Positions 43,261 through 49,589 of a stretch of 64,000 nt of DNA are shown here, piece after piece. Position 1 is the stretch's first letter; each line of letters begins with the position of its first letter. The stretch is from Alphaproteobacteria bacterium (GTDB lineage Bacteria > Pseudomonadota > Alphaproteobacteria > Bin95), in contig OZ219785.1 in assembly GCA_964291285.2 (NCBI GenBank), positions 416,001 through 480,000 of the forward strand, given 5' to 3'. The position numbers and the translations under genes are program-made. Below the pieces are notes generated by a model. It did no database searches. It was not told the origin of the DNA and saw only the letters and a list, made by a program, of their open reading frames with translations.

Positions 43261-44907
43261 GTGACCGCCATCGTCTATCCTGCGGCCCGGATCGTCACCA
43301 TGAACCCGGCCCGGCCGCACGCCACCCATGTGGCGGTGCGGGAGGGCCGCATCCTCGGCGCCGGGACGCTGGAGGAGCTGGCCGGCTGGGGCGAGTACCG
43401 CCTCGACGGGCGCTTCGCGGACAAGGTGCTGATGCCGGGCCTCGTGGAAGGCCACAGCCATGTCATGGAAGGCTCGCTCTGGGCCTATGTCTATTGCGGC
43501 TTCTTCGACCGCATGGACCCCGAAGGCAGGGTCTGGGCGGGCCTGAAGTCCATCGACGAGGTGGTGGAGCGGCTCGCCGAAGCGGCGGGCGCGCTGGAGG
43601 ACCCGGCGGCGCCGCTCGCCGGCTGGTCGCTCGACGCGATCTACTATGGCGGCCGGCGCATCGACCGCCACGACCTCGACAGGGTCTCGACCGAACGCGC
43701 GGTCGGCGTGCTGAACGCCTCCGGCCATATCCTGAACGTCAACACGAAGGCGCTGGAGCTCGCCGGCCTGCTGCGCACCGGCGTCAACCATCCCGGCGTC
43801 CCGCTCGGCGCGGACGGCCTGCCGACCGGCGAGATGAAGGGGCCCGACGCCATGGCCCCGCTCGGCGTCCACACCGGCTTCGACCGCGACCTGCTGGCCT
43901 GCGACGAACCGGGCCTGCGCCGCTTTGCCAAGCTCTGCGTGCGCACCGGCGTCACCACGGCCGCAGACCTCGCCAACCTGCTGCCGGAAGAGGCCGTGGA
44001 AATGATGCTCAGGGTGACAAGCGAGCCGGACTACCCGGCGCGCATCGTCTCGCTGCGGCGCTTCTACGGCCTGACGCCCGAAGAGCTGATCGACCGGGCG
44101 CTCGAGCTCAGGGGCCGCAGCCGGGACAGGCTCCGCCTCGGCATCATCAAGGTGGTGGCGGACGGCTCGATCCAGGGCTTCTCCGCCCGGCTGCGCTGGC
44201 CCGGCTATTACAACGGCGCGCCGGAGGGGCTCTGGTACGTGCCGCCGGAGCACCTGCTGGAGATCTACGAACGCGCGCTCGCCGCCGGCCTCCAGGTGCA
44301 CACGCACACCAATGGCGACGAGGCGACGGAGCTGGCGCTCGACTGCATGGAATCCGCGCTCCGCAAGCATCCCGCGCCCGACCACCGCTTCACCCTCCAG
44401 CACTGCCAGCTTGCCGACGCCGCGCAGTTCCGCCGCATCCGCGCGCTCGGCCTCTGCGTCAACCTGTTCCCCAACCACCATTTTTACTGGGGCGACCAGC
44501 ACTACGCCGTGACCGTGGGCCCCGAGCGCGCCGAGCGCATGAACGCCTGCGCGACCGCGCTCCGCGAGGGCGTGCCGCTCGCCATCCACTCCGATGCGCC
44601 GGTGACGCCGCTCGGGCCGCTCTTCACCGCATGGTGCGCCGTCAACCGCCGGACCGCGTCGGGGCGCACCCTCGGCGGGCATGAGCGGATCGGCGTCGCC
44701 GACGCGCTCCGCACGATCACGCTCGGCGCCGCCTGGACGCTCGGCCTCGACGGCGAGGTCGGCTCCATCGAGACCGGCAAGCGCGCCGATTTCGCCGTGC
44801 TGGAGGACGACCCGGAGACCGTCGGCGGAGAGCGGCTGAAGGATGTCCGCGTCTGGGGCACGGTGCAGGGCGGCCGCATCTTCCGGGCCGCGGACCTCCA
44901 GCCATGA
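43261..44907 (+). CDS. Amidohydrolase 3 family (YtcJ-like)
   Basis: PGLVEGHSH, KVVADGS, HTNGD, HSDAP and GSIETGKRADF. Confidence 0.9.
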   Translation: MTAIVYPAARIVTMNPARPHATHVAVREGRILGAGTLEELAGWGEYRLDGRFADKVLMPGLVEGHSHVMEGSLWAYVYCGFFDRMDPEGRVWAGLKSIDEVVERLAEAAGALEDPAAPLAGWSLDAIYYGGRRIDRHDLDRVSTERAVGVLNASGHILNVNTKALELAGLLRTGVNHPGVPLGADGLPTGEMKGPDAMAPLGVHTGFDRDLLACDEPGLRRFAKLCVRTGVTTAADLANLLPEEAVEMMLRVTSEPDYPARIVSLRRFYGLTPEELIDRALELRGRSRDRLRLGIIKVVADGSIQGFSARLRWPGYYNGAPEGLWYVPPEHLLEIYERALAAGLQVHTHTNGDEATELALDCMESALRKHPAPDHRFTLQHCQLADAAQFRRIRALGLCVNLFPNHHFYWGDQHYAVTVGPERAERMNACATALREGVPLAIHSDAPVTPLGPLFTAWCAVNRRTASGRTLGGHERIGVADALRTITLGAAWTLGLDGEVGSIETGKRADFAVLEDDPETVGGERLKDVRVWGTVQGGRIFRAADLQP

Positions 44908-45881
44908 CGCCCGCCGCCCCGCTGCCCGTCACCGTGGTCGGCGGCTATCTGGGCGCCGGCAAGACGACGCTGGTCAACAGCCTGCTCCGGCAGGCGAACG
45001 GCCGGCGGCTCGCAATCATGGTGAACGAATTCGGCGCGCTTCCCATAGACGCGAGCCTCGTCGAGGCTGCGGACGAGAGGATCGTCAGCCTTGTCGGCGG
45101 CTGCGTCTGTTGCAGCTACGGGGAGGACCTCGTGTCCTCGCTCACCATGCTGGAGGCGCTGGAGCCGAGGCCCGACCATGTGCTGCTGGAGGCGAGCGGC
45201 GTCGCCTTCCCCGGCGCCATCGCCGGCACGGTCGGCCTGCTGCAGGGCTTCGCGCTCGACGGGGCGGTGGTGCTGGCCGACGCCGAGACCGTGCGCGAGC
45301 GCGCCGGTGACCGCTATCTCGGCAGCACCGTCCGCCGGCAGCTTGCCGAAGCCGACCTCATCCTGCTCAACAAGTGCGACCTCGCGGGCGATGCGGACGA
45401 AGTGGAAGCCTGGCTCGGCGGGACCGCGCCCGAGGCCCGGCTTCTGCGCACGGTGCGCTCCGAGGCCCCCATCGACATCGTGCTCGGCGCCTGGACCGGC
45501 CGCGCGCCCCTGCCGGCCGCCGGCGGGCCGTTCGACCACACGCACGGCTACGCAACCGCCGCGCTCGACCCGCCCGAGGGCGCCGAACCGGAGGCGCTCG
45601 CCCGCACCCTCGCCGACCCCGCCCACGCCCTGTTGCGCGCCAAGGGCTTCATACGCCGGCCCGGCGGCGGCATGGCCGCCATCCAGACCGTCGGCAGCCG
45701 CTGGGCCGTCTCCGACGCACCCGCAGACGCCCCCGCCGGCCTCGTCTGCATCGGCCTCGAAGAACAGACGGACTTCGCCGCCCTCCGGCGGGCGTTTGGC
45801 CTGGCTGCCCCTGATGCCGACGGCCGCCGGTCCGGGGCTTTGCGGACGAGCCCGGTTCAGCCCGGCCGGACCGGCTTCTGA
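44904..45881 (+). CDS. CobW/COG0523 metallochaperone GTPase
   Basis: GYLGAGKTT, VNEFG, GCVCC, EASG, NKCD and RAKG. Confidence 0.9.
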   Translation: MTPAAPLPVTVVGGYLGAGKTTLVNSLLRQANGRRLAIMVNEFGALPIDASLVEAADERIVSLVGGCVCCSYGEDLVSSLTMLEALEPRPDHVLLEASGVAFPGAIAGTVGLLQGFALDGAVVLADAETVRERAGDRYLGSTVRRQLAEADLILLNKCDLAGDADEVEAWLGGTAPEARLLRTVRSEAPIDIVLGAWTGRAPLPAAGGPFDHTHGYATAALDPPEGAEPEALARTLADPAHALLRAKGFIRRPGGGMAAIQTVGSRWAVSDAPADAPAGLVCIGLEEQTDFAALRRAFGLAAPDADGRRSGALRTSPVQPGRTGF

Positions 45882-46333
45882 TTTTCCGCCGGAACGGCTG
45901 CGCGGGCTCGTTCAGCGACCGGGGTAAACGCGGCGGGTGTTCTGCGCTGCGCATCGGACGGGTTGTTTCGCGCCGTATCGAGAGCCAGTTCCAGAAGACT
46001 GCGCAGCATCGCAAGGCGGGTTTCACCGGCATTTTCGCCGCAGGGCCGGTCTTCGAACAACTCGTCATGCGCGCGCACGGCCCGGACCGCCTTCGGAAAA
46101 AATACGAGCCCGGCCTCGGTTAACTGCGTGCGCCCGACCTGGCGGGGCTCGCGCGGCCAGGATGTTTCGAGCAATTTCCGCCCGACGGATTTTTCCACTG
46201 CGAGGACATGCTGAGTCACGCTCTGGCGCGGAATTCCCAAGCGCCGGACGGCTCTTGCGCTGCTTCTTTCCTCCACCATCGCCAGGAAAGAACAAAGATG
46301 TTTCATATTAATGTTCGGATTTATATATGACAT
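45857..46333 (-). CDS. Small LysR-type HTH protein lacking an effector domain (alternative start 46306)
   Basis: MKHLCSFLAMVEERSSARAVRRLGIPRQSVTQHVLAVEKSVGRKLLE...LTEAG matches the LysR HTH; only ~150 aa. Confidence 0.72.
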   Translation of the reverse strand: MSYINPNINMKHLCSFLAMVEERSSARAVRRLGIPRQSVTQHVLAVEKSVGRKLLETSWPREPRQVGRTQLTEAGLVFFPKAVRAVRAHDELFEDRPCGENAGETRLAMLRSLLELALDTARNNPSDAQRRTPAAFTPVAERARAAVPAENQKPVRPG

Positions 46334-46360
46334 AATCGCAGAATTGGCATTATGAGAAAT
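46333..46360 (+). other. dif-like Xer recombination site (left)
   Basis: TAATCGCAGAA-TTGGCA-TTATGAGAAAT versus E. coli dif GGTGCGCATAA-TGTATA-TTATGTTAAAT (XerD arm 9/11); contains the porin ATG. Confidence 0.75.
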
Positions 46361-47752
46361 TGCCTTTTTGCGACCGCAGGTCTGGCGTTCGTTAGCAGCC
46401 CCGCAATGGCGGCCGACATGCTGTCGGTCGGCGTTGGCGGCTACATGCAGCAATGGTTCGGCTACGCCGACCGCGACGACGGCGCCGAAGGCGGCTTCGA
46501 CACCCAGTCGGACAGCGAGGTCTATTTCTCGGGCTCGCTCGAGTCGGATTCGGGCCTCAAGTTCGGCGTGGACGTTCAGCTGGAGGGCAATAACGGCCCG
46601 AAGGAGTACACCCATCCGGCCACCGGCACGAACAACAATCCGACGGGCTCGACCAACATCGACGAGTCCTTCGCCTGGGTGAGCGGCGATTTCGGACGGC
46701 TTGAGATCGGCGCGCGCGACTCGATCCATGCCCGTACGCATGTCGGCATCAGGGATGTCGGCGTCGGCATCAGCGGCGGCGACACGCACAAATGGATTCC
46801 GGGCGCCTACCACGACACCAATGGCTGGTGGGTCGGCATGGGCGACAACAAGAACGTGATCTACATCTCGCCGCGCGTGAACGGCGTGCAGCTCGGCGTG
46901 TCCTACGGGCCGGACGTCGCCAACGAAAGCAAGTGGCCGGGCGCCCCGACCGGAAGCGAGGACTCCGTCTGGGCCGCCGGCCTCAACTTCCAGCAGGACA
47001 TCGGCGACACCAGCTTCAGCTTCTCGGTCGGGCATCGCAGCCGCGAGAACAACGCCGACGCCACGTTCGACCTCGACATGGACGATGACAACATGCTGGT
47101 GACGGCGGCCGACAGGTCGATGGACAACAAGATGAAGGGGCGCGACAGCGACACCTTCACCAATGTCGGCCTCGGCGTGGGCTTCGGCGCGTTCACCTTC
47201 AATGTCGCTTACGCCATGCGCGACAGGGGCCAGGTTTCCAGCGAATGCCGCTTCGTCGGCAGCGACGACAGTAACGACGCAGAAACACTGGATGCAGTGG
47301 ATGCCACGGCGACCGCAGCCGCAATACCGGCTGTGAATGAGGGCGACACGGTGGCCTGCGACCGGGCCGGCGTGGTTCTCATGGGTAGCATGGTGACCGC
47401 TGGCGACGGGACCCAGAGCGACGCCCCCACCACCGGCAACGGCGCCGTCAACGCCACCCACATGTTCGTGGATAACAAGAGCGGCGCGTGGGACACCTGG
47501 GGCGCCAGCGTCACCTATACGGACGGCCCGATGGCGCTGAGCCTCGCCCATATGCAACTGGACGCCGATGACAACACCGGGCGCACCGCGACCATGGTTT
47601 CGGCCGCCTACACGCTCGCGCCGGGTGTCGCCTGGAGGAGCTCTATCTTCCAGGTCGAGGACGACACGACCCAGAACCTGGGCGGCGAGGAAGCCAGGCA
47701 GGACGTGAACGAGGGCACGGCCTTCGTAACCGGCATCACGCTCAGCTTCTAG
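46352..47752 (+). CDS. Alphaproteobacterial-type outer-membrane porin
   Basis: Signal peptide ending AMA; DSEVYFSG, GLKFG, IDESF.W.SG.FGRLEIG, YISPR, YTLAPG and terminal Phe. Confidence 0.92.
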   Translation: MRNCLFATAGLAFVSSPAMAADMLSVGVGGYMQQWFGYADRDDGAEGGFDTQSDSEVYFSGSLESDSGLKFGVDVQLEGNNGPKEYTHPATGTNNNPTGSTNIDESFAWVSGDFGRLEIGARDSIHARTHVGIRDVGVGISGGDTHKWIPGAYHDTNGWWVGMGDNKNVIYISPRVNGVQLGVSYGPDVANESKWPGAPTGSEDSVWAAGLNFQQDIGDTSFSFSVGHRSRENNADATFDLDMDDDNMLVTAADRSMDNKMKGRDSDTFTNVGLGVGFGAFTFNVAYAMRDRGQVSSECRFVGSDDSNDAETLDAVDATATAAAIPAVNEGDTVACDRAGVVLMGSMVTAGDGTQSDAPTTGNGAVNATHMFVDNKSGAWDTWGASVTYTDGPMALSLAHMQLDADDNTGRTATMVSAAYTLAPGVAWRSSIFQVEDDTTQNLGGEEARQDVNEGTAFVTGITLSF

Positions 47753-47824
47753 GCCGGGCTACCTGAAAGGGCGGCGGCGGCGTCACGGGTCGTATCCCCG
47801 ACCCTCCTTCTGCTGCGGCCGTCC

Positions 47825-47856
47825 GGGGTGGCGTTGGGTTGCAACGACGCCACCCC
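47825..47856. terminator. GC-rich hairpin downstream of the porin, inside the putative invertible segment
   Basis: GGGGTGGCGTTG...CGACGCCACCCC inverted repeat. Confidence 0.55.
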
Positions 47857-47864
47857 ACCCTTGC

Positions 47865-47927
47865 TTAAATGCAATAATTTCCCATAATGCCAATTCTGCG
47901 ACCGGCGTTCGGAGGTGCTTTTCTCAT
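47865..47927 (-). CDS. 20-aa leader ORF MRKAPPNAGRRIGIMGNYCI (orphan porin start)
   Basis: GGAGG RBS 8 nt before ATG 47927; reads through the right dif-like site in the same frame as the porin ATG in the left site. Confidence 0.55.
   Translation of the reverse strand: MRKAPPNAGRRIGIMGNYCI
47877..47904 (-). other. dif-like Xer recombination site (right, inverted)
   Basis: Minus strand CGGTCGCAGAA-TTGGCA-TTATGGGAAAT; same 6-bp spacer as the left site. Confidence 0.75.
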
Positions 47928-48023
47928 TCCGAATTCCTCCGGTAACAGCCGTCCGGGATTGGACAGCGCGGCCATCCTGCCCTGCCCGGCCGGCGGCTGC
48001 AATCCGCCCGATGCCGATTTTCG

Positions 48024-48051
48024 AGCCCTGTTGCGAAAATGCAACAGGGCT
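48024..48051. promoter_or_regulatory. Perfect 11-bp-arm palindrome (operator candidate) overlapping a TTGCAT -35-like hexamer
   Basis: AGCCCTGTTGC-GAAAAT-GCAACAGGGCT, about 100 bp upstream of the leader ATG on the minus strand. Confidence 0.5.
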
Positions 48052-48140: not shown

Positions 48141-49589
48141 GATCGTGCCCCCGCGGGTGGTGTAAGAGCCTGGCGTCCGTAGCGGTGTCCGGCGGGTAGG
48201 GCCGGAACGCTCAGGCTGCCACGGCGGGCAACTTGACGGTTGTATTGTCGCTCACGGGAGCGATGGATTCCAGCGTCATGTATCTGGCTCTCTGGACTGC
48301 CCATTCATCGTTCTGCTCGAGCAGGATTGCGCCGATCAGCCGGGTGATGGCGTCCTCGTTGGGGAAGATGCCGACGGTGTTTGTGCGCCGCTTGATCTCG
48401 CCGTGGAGGCGTTCGAGCGGGTTTGTCGAGTGCAGCTTGGCGCGGTGCGCGGCCGGGAAGGTCATGTAGGCGAGAACATCGTGCTCGGCCTCGTCCATGA
48501 TGGCGGCGAGCTTTGGCGCCTTGGGCCTGAGCTGGTCGGCGACCTGGCGCCACTGGGCGGAGGCGCTGTCTGCATCCTCCTGGGCGAAGGCGGTAGTGAC
48601 GAAGGCGGAGACGACGCGCCGGCCCTGCTTGCCGGCATGGGCGAGCAGGTTGCGCATGAAGTGGACGCGGCATCTCTGCCAGGTGGCGCCGAAGATGCGG
48701 GTGGCGGCGGCCTTCAGGCCCTTGTGGTCGTCGGAGATCACCAGCTTGACGCCGCGCAGGCCGCGGCGGGCGAGCGAGCGCAGGAAGTCGGTCCAGAAGG
48801 TCTCGGCCTCGGACGCGCCGATCGCCATGCCGAGCACCTCGCGCCGGCCCTGATCGTTGACCGCCACCGCGATGGTGACCGCGACCGAGACGACGCGCCC
48901 GGCCTCGCGCATCTTCACATAGGTCGCGTCAAGCCAGAGATACGGCCAGTCGCCCTCCAGCGGCCGGTCGAGGAAGTCGCGGATCTTGTCGTCGATCTCG
49001 CCGCACAGCCGCGACACCTGGCTCTTGGAGATGCCCGACATGCCCATCGCCTGCACCAGGTCGTCCACCGAGCGGGTCGATACGCCCTTGATGTAGGCCT
49101 CCTGGATCACCGCCGTCAGCGCCTTCTCCGCCATCCGCCGCGGTTCAAGGAAGCCCGGGAAGTAGCTCCCCTTGCGCAGCTTCGGGATCTTCAGTTCGAC
49201 CGTGCCGGCCCGCGTCTCCCAGACCCGGTCCCGGTAGCCGTTGCGCTGCGTGATCCGGTCCGGCGAGCGCTCGCCGTGCGCGGCGCCCGCAAGGCCCTCA
49301 ACCTCAAGCGCCATCAGACGCGCGGCCGTGAACCCGATCATCTCGCGAAGCAGGTCGGCGTCGGAACTCTTCTCCAACAGCGCCCGCAGGGTCATCATGT
49401 CGGTGGTGGTCATCGTGGTACTCCTCCGGTCAGGTGGACTGTGACAGCCCAACCCTAACCGGCACCGCGATGGCCTCCGCTGTGGGTAAGTGGCCCGCCG
49501 CCTGACTCCAGACGGTCGCGGCGGCGGGCCACTTACCCACAGCTACCACCGGAAGCTTCAGCTCCTACACCACCCCTGGGGACACGACC
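48141..49589 (-). mobile_element. IS256-family element with 8-bp TSD
   Basis: CCCGTGAA at 48133-48140 and 49590-49597; ~29-bp imperfect IRs. Confidence 0.92.
48211..49413 (-). CDS. IS256 transposase
   Basis: [31 protein letters not shown] and STNPLER. Confidence 0.95.

Follow-up and report, generated by a model that had tools for sequence, protein, structure and literature searches.

The 64-kb window considered here, meaning the whole stretch of DNA that was analyzed, lies on contig C1 of a 6.1-Mb alphaproteobacterial genome (the source genome, G000), and coordinates without a contig name are those of the window. It carries a porin gene enclosed by two inverted dif-like sites, and we conclude that this module is probably a chromosomal, Xer-site-bounded invertible porin switch that would be OFF by default. 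A XerCD-driven ON/OFF switch of this porin had been proposed in the initial annotation of the DNA. The anatomy of the sites, the co-variation of their spacers and a public protein designated P0073 speak for that proposal, whereas assemblies and run contigs present only the assembled orientation. From left to right, the module up to its right site consists of the following features.

45857..46306, minus strand: gene for a small LysR-type protein of 149 amino acids that holds only a helix-turn-helix (HTH) domain (Pfam HTH_1, residues 2-66 only), divergent from the porin
46307..46332, no strand: AT-rich gap between the start of the HTH gene and the left site, where the guanine-plus-cytosine (GC) fraction drops to 0.50
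46333-46360, plus strand: left dif-like site, TAATCGCAGAA TTGGCA TTATGAGAAAT, with XerC-type arm (46333-46343), spacer (46344-46349) and XerD-type arm (46350-46360)
46352..47752, plus strand: porin gene, 466 amino acids, Porin_4 (Pfam PF13609, E 4e-34), with signal peptide MRNCLFATAGLAFVSSPAMA
47825-47856, plus strand: GC-rich, terminator-like hairpin of 12 bp, located 3' of the porin stop and without a clean T run
47904-47877, minus strand: right dif-like site, CGGTCGCAGAA TTGGCA TTATGGGAAAT, with XerC-type arm (47904-47894), spacer (47893-47888) and XerD-type arm (47887-47877)

Both sites span 28 bp with an 11-6-11 architecture, lie in inverted orientation and share the TTGGCA spacer, exactly where the initial annotation had placed them. 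The porin ATG (46352) indeed falls inside the left inner XerD arm and follows a stretch without a Shine-Dalgarno (SD) sequence (TTGGCATT-ATG). Together, the sites form an inverted repeat of 26 nucleotides (nt) that is 96% complementary with one mismatch (46336-46361 / 47876-47901). The site pair gave 2 matches in the window versus 0 in 100 shuffles, and exact copies occur nowhere else in the 6.1-Mb genome. Both sites fit the pattern CGCANAA-N6-TTATG, which is present at just five places in 6.1 Mb; only two such sites lie on contig C1, as an isolated pair and not as part of an alternating array. The letters immediately outside the repeats differ (ACATAA / CCGGCG), leaving no target-site duplication. 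Ends of a transposon or of a miniature inverted-repeat transposable element were ruled out by this lack of a duplication and by the presence of just two genome copies. An integrative mobile element exploiting Xer was ruled out as well, since the sites are inverted, not direct, and lie on another contig than dif.

The sequence TCGCATAA-TGTATA-TTATGGGAAAT has matches in 16 of the 17 genomes of the genus set (letter-exact in 12) and is single-copy in 15 of them, the relative G008 having five matches (dif and four module sites) and the relative G004 none. In the source genome it is found at 122,984 on contig C2, whose cumulative GC-skew maximum lies at ~130,000. Because it is single-copy and located at the skew maximum, we regarded this sequence as the genuine dif. 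Compared across the 8-nt core of the XerC arm and the full 11-nt XerD arm, it agrees with the right site at 18/19 positions, the XerD arms being identical, and with the left site at 17/19, while the module spacer differs from the dif spacer TGTATA. In G008, the left sites of four porin modules match the dif arms at all 19 positions around the spacer AGTGCA. The dif-likeness first noted for the two sites thus holds against the organism's own dif. No tyrosine or serine recombinase gene was found in the 64-kb window, bearing out the earlier statement that none is encoded locally.

The initial annotation had suggested that relatives be searched for similar sites next to porins, and ~26 homologous modules or module halves were found in ~10 related genomes. 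The right-flank query detected homologues in 7 of the 17 genus genomes and the HTH query added further records of metagenome-assembled genomes; a tblastn search of 72,556 plasmid records, using the HTH protein as query, gave no match. The order of elements is the HTH-only gene, the left site, the porin, a hairpin or terminator, the right site, and a flank with leader and promoter. Sites and open reading frames (ORFs) were compared in 15 complete modules from seven genomes, and a 16th module was added for the spacer check. The porin ORF is intact in all 15 (462-571 amino acids) and the ratio of nonsynonymous to synonymous substitution rates (dN/dS) ranges from 0.18 to 0.79 among orthologous module-porin pairs, which argues that the modules are maintained and are not relics. 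The region downstream of the porin is preserved too: the distance from stop codon to right site is 122-124 nt in modules of the G000 type, with the hairpin kept in position, and G008 has a canonical terminator (hairpin and T run) between the porin stop and the right site. In the window, the segment 47756-47905 folds at -69.4 kcal/mol (z -3.7).

Left and right spacers were identical in 14 of the 15 complete modules, and the 16th was also matched (15/16). When partners were shuffled 100,000 times, identical spacers averaged 2.5 and reached a maximum of 10. Kinship among the modules inflates this statistic, so the number of independent spacer types is the sounder measure, and matched pairs comprised seven types. 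When different modules are compared, the spacer varies more than any other part of the site (0.32 differences per nt versus 0.06-0.13 in the arms), whereas within modules just 1 of 90 spacer positions differs, compared with 24 of 165 XerD-arm positions. The orthologous porins of four genomes are associated with four matched spacers (TTGGCA, TAGGCA, TGGGCA and AGTGCA). Four modules with four different spacers are present in each of the relatives G009 and G004, and four modules with a single spacer in G008. Agreement confined to the spacer, combined with arms that are free to diverge, is on sequence grounds the signature of partner sites of a tyrosine recombinase, and it provides the strongest of the comparative evidence.

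The sites do not coincide with the limits of similarity between copies. The four G008 modules share flanking homology for ~700 bp on the left side and for 160-350 bp on the right. Their similarity also crosses the sites, reaching ~160 nt into the 5' part of the porin gene and, at the other end, covering the 250-450 nt that precede the right site. Because the similarity boundaries fall elsewhere, an exchange of cassettes at the sites is unsupported, and the idea that porin cassettes are swapped into an expression site fails because each module has its own promoter flank. In the same G008 modules (L055, L058, L059 and L060), repeats of ~130 bp bound the unit, in tandem ~550-850 bp to the left and singly 250-380 bp to the right. 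The module on contig C10 of G009 (L051) and module L088 represent a type with 0.6 kb of additional DNA (2700-3290 in L051), including a small ORF, between porin terminator and right site, so an invertible segment can hold more than a porin. G006 carries a module that is broken at both sites: its two flanks survive and the porin is gone (L076 = C104, L030 = C144). On the left, homology ends immediately past the spacer, on the right it ends within the spacer, and a similar GArYTGAGCCGCG... sequence follows in either case. This suggests that a repeated element with similar ends was inserted at the module or replaced it, with no clean Xer junction.

Outside the right site, the window carries the elements listed below, all but the last on the minus strand.

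47865..47927, minus strand: leader ORF of 20 codons plus stop, MRKAPPNAGRRIGIMGNYCI, crossing the right site and ending just before the 12-bp hairpin
47940-47936, minus strand: SD sequence GGAGG, enclosed in a small CGGAGG...CCTCCG hairpin; the corresponding sequence in relatives is GGAAGG or AGGAG
47948..47967, minus strand: conserved 5' untranslated region (5' UTR) hairpin GCTGTCC-AATCCC-GGACGGC
47974..48002, minus strand: promoter-like hexamers TTGCAG (48002-47997) and CAGGAT (47979-47974), separated by 17 nt and recognized by conservation
48028-48047, no strand: palindrome CTGTTGC-N6-GCAACAG, a putative porin-promoter operator with genome copies by porins

As originally described, GGAGG and the ATG at 47927 open a 20-codon ORF that is followed by a hairpin. 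In 15/15 modules, the leader ATG precedes the site ATG by 42 nt and is in frame with it, and the first 14 leader codons are the part that inversion would fuse in frame to the porin. The hexamers (TTGCAx / yAGGAT, with CAGCAT in G014) are kept 16-17 nt apart in diverged clades, with variable bases in between. For the 5' UTR hairpin, 97% of cells were paired in an alignment of 16 sequences, with 15 one-sided changes, all to G-U, and one compensatory change. The hairpin is read on the minus strand because the G-U changes pair only there; its whole-structure co-variation is modest, being equalled in 35 of 500 shuffles. A hairpin sequestering the SD sequence was also considered and set aside, as the local fold (-10 kcal/mol, z -1.7) is not significant on its own.

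The palindrome reported for this flank was found at 48028-48047. It has three copies in the genome, all three by porin genes, while four control palindromes gave 0, 0, 0 and 1 matches. At a conventional divergent porin pair, it stands 142-156 nt from the start codons. In the module it currently lies beyond the porin 3' end, and inversion would bring it to ~141 nt from the porin ATG. Taken together, the hexamers, hairpin, SD sequence, ATG and palindrome agree with the promoter-bearing flank postulated outside the right site, and they support its assignment as a putative conserved porin-type expression region directed inward, into the porin 3' end.

The fusion of leader and porin that had been predicted to form in frame upon inversion has a counterpart among public proteins. 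P0073 comprises 548 amino acids and comes from an 86.9-kb ENA contig. Its N-terminus is MRKAIPDAGRRIGI-MRNCLF..., and reads on as MRKAIPDAGRRIGI-MRNCLFATASLAFVSSPAMAADMLSV. The first 14 residues (MRKAIPDAGRRIGI) equal the leader outside the right site of the relative G014, and MRNCLFATASLAFVSSPAMA... follows directly. The porin part is 77% identical to the OFF-oriented porin of G014, with similarity starting from residue 9, where the codons of arm and spacer start. Residues 1-8 do not derive from a left flank, since that of G014 reads ...YILHGRRMGIM. P0073 thus appears to be a natural ON-type product, seen in one lineage, and would mean that both orientations exist between lineages, at the protein level.

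These observations can be combined into a mechanism. Judging from arm identity, the host XerC and XerD would bind both sites; with the host's own dif arms in the sites, these two proteins are the most likely recombinase. A crossover in the identical 6-bp spacers would then flip ~1.54 kb, as suggested by the precedent of Acinetobacter, in which XerCD inverts dif modules only between inverse sites with identical or one-mismatch spacers, according to two reports (PMC13141974, PMC9947245). In the ON state, the promoter, 5' UTR, SD sequence and 14 leader codons would be joined in frame to the signal peptide of the porin, presumably giving it a longer, positively charged n-region, and the terminator and the HTH gene would come downstream, with the terminator shielding the HTH gene. 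In the OFF state, which would be the default as in the assemblies, the right-flank promoter would read into the porin 3' end and yield a 20-residue peptide and perhaps an antisense RNA, whose continuation through the porin into the HTH gene is speculative. The porin would then be silent or at most weakly expressed. As far as sequence can indicate, orientation would change the coupling of gene and promoter because the conserved promoter, SD sequence and in-frame ATG all lie outside the inverted segment. Catalysis by XerCD, reversibility, switching frequency and the effect on expression are what we infer in this scheme.

A broader reading seems plausible to us but stops short of being probable. 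In it, a family of chromosomal porin contingency switches, with up to four modules per genome, would have taken over housekeeping XerCD/dif recombination as its invertase. Modules with spacers of their own, as in G009 and G004, would have private addresses that keep the switches independent, each flip would create a translational fusion across the site, and the HTH protein would act as a feedback regulator or accessory factor. Engineered heterospecific lox and FRT sites are independent by address in the way that such module-specific spacers would be.

Several observations weigh against an active switch, the first of them concerning orientation. Each of the ~26 modules or module halves known from assemblies is OFF-oriented. 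This holds for all 11 right flanks with a directly adjacent porin (two more carry the extra 0.6-kb segment), for the four G008 modules and for all 18 HTH loci with a porin. Contigs from three sequencing runs of this organism, all from one study, bridge both sites in the assembled orientation only. Contigs of a related sponge-metagenome run also cover both junctions in that orientation. These are Logan contigs, which lose rare variants, so that a minority orientation is beyond their resolution; no strand-changing joint was present among them. Searches for a flipped module found none in the 17 genus genomes (right-flank query), none among all species genomes (HTH-protein query) and none in 37 genomes of the order (P0073 query), the genome of P0073 itself being outside the latter set. 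A metagenome scan with a 20-nt leader pattern returned six loci, each a chance match with neither site nor porin. In two of the runs (X2 and X3), a T>C change is seen at 47875, adjoining the right site.

The adverse points extend to the ON-type protein and to the recombination machinery. The leader is present in only 1 of 33 representatives of module-type porins, a count in which clustering at 90% identity may hide others, and P0073, known as a protein alone, might be the product of a gene that never inverted. A protein search with the N-terminus of the porin from the G009 C10 module found four proteins, none with the leader. The putative XerC (300 bits, C1:357272-358141) and XerD (297 bits, C4:752761-753624) are full-length reciprocal best matches that score below the NCBIfam cut-offs of 335 and 330, respectively. 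As known from E. coli, Xer recombination activated by FtsK is expected to be weak far from dif, and the modules lie far from it. A strict sigma-70 scan called no promoter on either strand, so the right-flank promoter is deduced from conservation.

The sites themselves also give reasons for doubt. The right XerD arm of G008 has two or three mismatches to dif. A dif-like motif is also present at the start of porin paralogs that lack a partner site, so part of the XerD-arm likeness reflects the conserved start region of the family. Such partnerless paralogs lie at C1:177848-177872, C4:371351 and C4:399296, and read TCGCAGAA-CGGGGA-TTATGAGAAAT or TCCCGCAA-CGGGGA-...; the two on C4 are preceded, 10 nt upstream, by a second, directly oriented ATTATGGGCAATTT. 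The sites may have originated from the start region of an ancestral porin. Finally, the spacers of G014 are unequal (TGGGCA / TTGGCA) at one position near the XerC side, a mismatch of the kind reported as tolerated in Acinetobacter (PMC13141974, PMC9947245).

The left flank bears on whether the porin is expressed as assembled. The HTH ORF is intact (132-158 amino acids) in 11 of 15 modules, with three cut by contig ends and one disrupted, and mean column identity in the protein alignment (A1) is 69%. PDB matches of the protein cover only the DNA-binding domain and linker helix of the LysR-type transcriptional regulators BenM, CatM and CbnR. A truncated LysR pseudogene as left neighbor was ruled out, the 132-158-residue form being conserved and belonging to the module. 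The gap between this gene and the left site is not conserved in relatives, varying in sequence and measuring 2 to 41 nt from the site to the HTH start codon. The weak TTAATG-17-CATAAT promoter proposed to the left of the porin is present as letters (46308-46336), but the promoter scan did not call it. In run X3, contigs break at 46118-46124 with loose ends that are mutually reverse-complementary and overlap by 7 nt, resembling an insertion in the HTH gene.

It is conceivable, although unlikely in our judgment, that the sites invert occasionally without forming a switch. The porin would then be expressed in the assembled orientation, for example from a leaderless or short-leader mRNA with CAGAAT/CATAAA in the XerC arm as -10 element, under control of the divergent HTH regulator, and the right promoter would serve antisense control or expression of the HTH gene. 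This would fit the orientation shared by all assemblies, the purifying selection on the porins, the classical divergent layout of LysR-type regulators and their targets, the AT richness of the left gap, and a hexamer resembling a -10 element that lies in the XerC arm and stops 7 nt short of the ATG. It leaves unexplained, however, why spacers match within modules, why an SD sequence and ATG stand in frame outside the right site in 15/15 modules and how the leader-porin fusion P0073 arose, and the left gap is unconserved in length and sequence.

The recombinase could also be a dedicated tyrosine recombinase encoded elsewhere in the genome, and not XerCD, which we regard as quite improbable. Such enzymes are in ample supply, with 115 matches to the tyrosine-recombinase domain PF00589 in the source genome, many of them in adjacent pairs or trios of similar size, and the Xer-like paralogs of Mollicutes provide a precedent (Ureaplasma XerC, PMC3599477). 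Against this stand arms that are identical or nearly identical to the host dif, at 19/19 positions in G008, so that XerC and XerD should bind them, and the finding that no recombinase gene is kept beside any module, where the HTH gene is the only conserved neighbor. Some of the PF00589 pairs and trios, such as that at C1:413130-414745, just left of the window, resemble recombinase-in-trio elements.

We consider it very improbable that the repeat is fixed and non-recombining, serving either as a pair of operators or at the RNA level, for example through pairing between the 5' and 3' ends of the porin mRNA or as a decoy of its start region. The single orientation of all assemblies and the coverage of the porin start codon by the repeat would agree with such a role. 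Yet co-variation is confined to the spacer and the arms consistently differ between left and right, unlike in a duplex, and the transcripts from the two sides carry the same and not complementary sequence. In G008, moreover, the terminator precedes the right site, so that the mRNA should stop before reaching it. An RNA duplex between the porin 5' end and 3' UTR was ruled out by the spacer-only co-variation and this terminator, and the P0073 junction, which falls exactly at the site, is likewise at odds with a fixed repeat. Lastly, a functionless relic of one ancient inversion or duplication, or of decayed mobile-element ends, is extremely unlikely despite a neighborhood rich in insertion sequences and a G006 module broken at both sites, for porin, HTH gene, leader and hexamers are intact across ~10 genomes, spacers have co-changed repeatedly, and there is neither a target-site duplication nor a transposase inside.

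Two neighbors of the module complete the picture of the region. On the left, a gene of the CobW/GTPase family (44904-45881) converges on the HTH gene with an end overlap of 25 nt. On the right, an insertion sequence lies outside the module, ~85 nt past the conserved right flank.

48141..49589, minus strand: insertion sequence of the IS256/Mutator family, ~1.45 kb (Pfam PF00872, E 2e-121)

This element has ~23 full or nearly full copies in the genome besides fragments, 17 of them at 100% identity over the full length, which suggests a recent expansion in the genome.

XerCD is known as the resolvase of chromosome and plasmid dimers, and is exploited by phages and by plasmid modules of Acinetobacter. 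A chromosomal Xer-site porin switch with dif arms was not found described in the literature, supplementary files lying outside the search. If confirmed, the switch considered here would be a chromosomal expression switch that uses host dif arms, adding a regulatory role to a near-universal housekeeping recombinase, and would show that spacer variants serve in nature to keep several switches separate. It would also mean that uncultured Alphaproteobacteria, one relative of which occurs in a sponge metagenome, could vary their surface porins, which act as channels for nutrients and are likely receptors for phages. The module itself is small and self-contained.

The closest likeness is to the D modules of Acinetobacter (pdif or pXerC/D), in which genes are bounded by inverse 11-6-11 Xer sites with the XerD arms internal, as they are in all porin modules of the present set. 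One such inversion of an Acinetobacter dif module was a minority form, accounting for 8% of junction reads (PMC13141974, PMC9947245). Adjacent pdif sites mostly differ in their spacers, according to the table in PMC13141974, whereas spacers are matched within the modules described here. Furthermore, the latter are located on the chromosome or a large replicon of uncultured Alphaproteobacteria as isolated pairs and not in arrays on Rep_3/OrfX plasmids, their porin cargo is wired to an outside promoter and an in-frame leader, and there is no sign of module transfer, as the boundaries of similarity are not at the sites.

Similar Xer-like inversion systems operate in Mycoplasma (vsa and vpma). For the mba/UU172 genes of Ureaplasma, PMC3599477 describes a Xer-family tyrosine recombinase that acts on short inverted repeats within the 5' portions of surface-protein genes and, by inverting the DNA, changes which gene lies behind the promoter. 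The Mollicute systems use a dedicated paralog, with a different protein binding dif in Ureaplasma, and several silent genes share an expression site. In contrast, the modules described here have sites with host dif arms, no local recombinase and a promoter of their own.

The four linked genes at the Omp1 locus of Dichelobacter nodosus are accompanied by sites of another, non-Xer type. Whole genes for this major outer membrane protein have been proposed to be switched by site-specific inversion, in work cited in PMC4196234 and PMC5903667. That locus is not known to have any likeness to dif, in contrast to the porin modules. Classical invertons such as fimS, hin and cwpV resemble the porin module in that inverted repeats connect or disconnect a gene and its promoter. 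Their OFF state is often dominant in reference genomes. They flip a promoter or leader by means of a dedicated recombinase, however, whereas here a whole gene would flip between housekeeping-type sites and create a translational fusion across the site. The module thus works like both the D-type dif module of Acinetobacter and the classical inverton, and is a member of neither.

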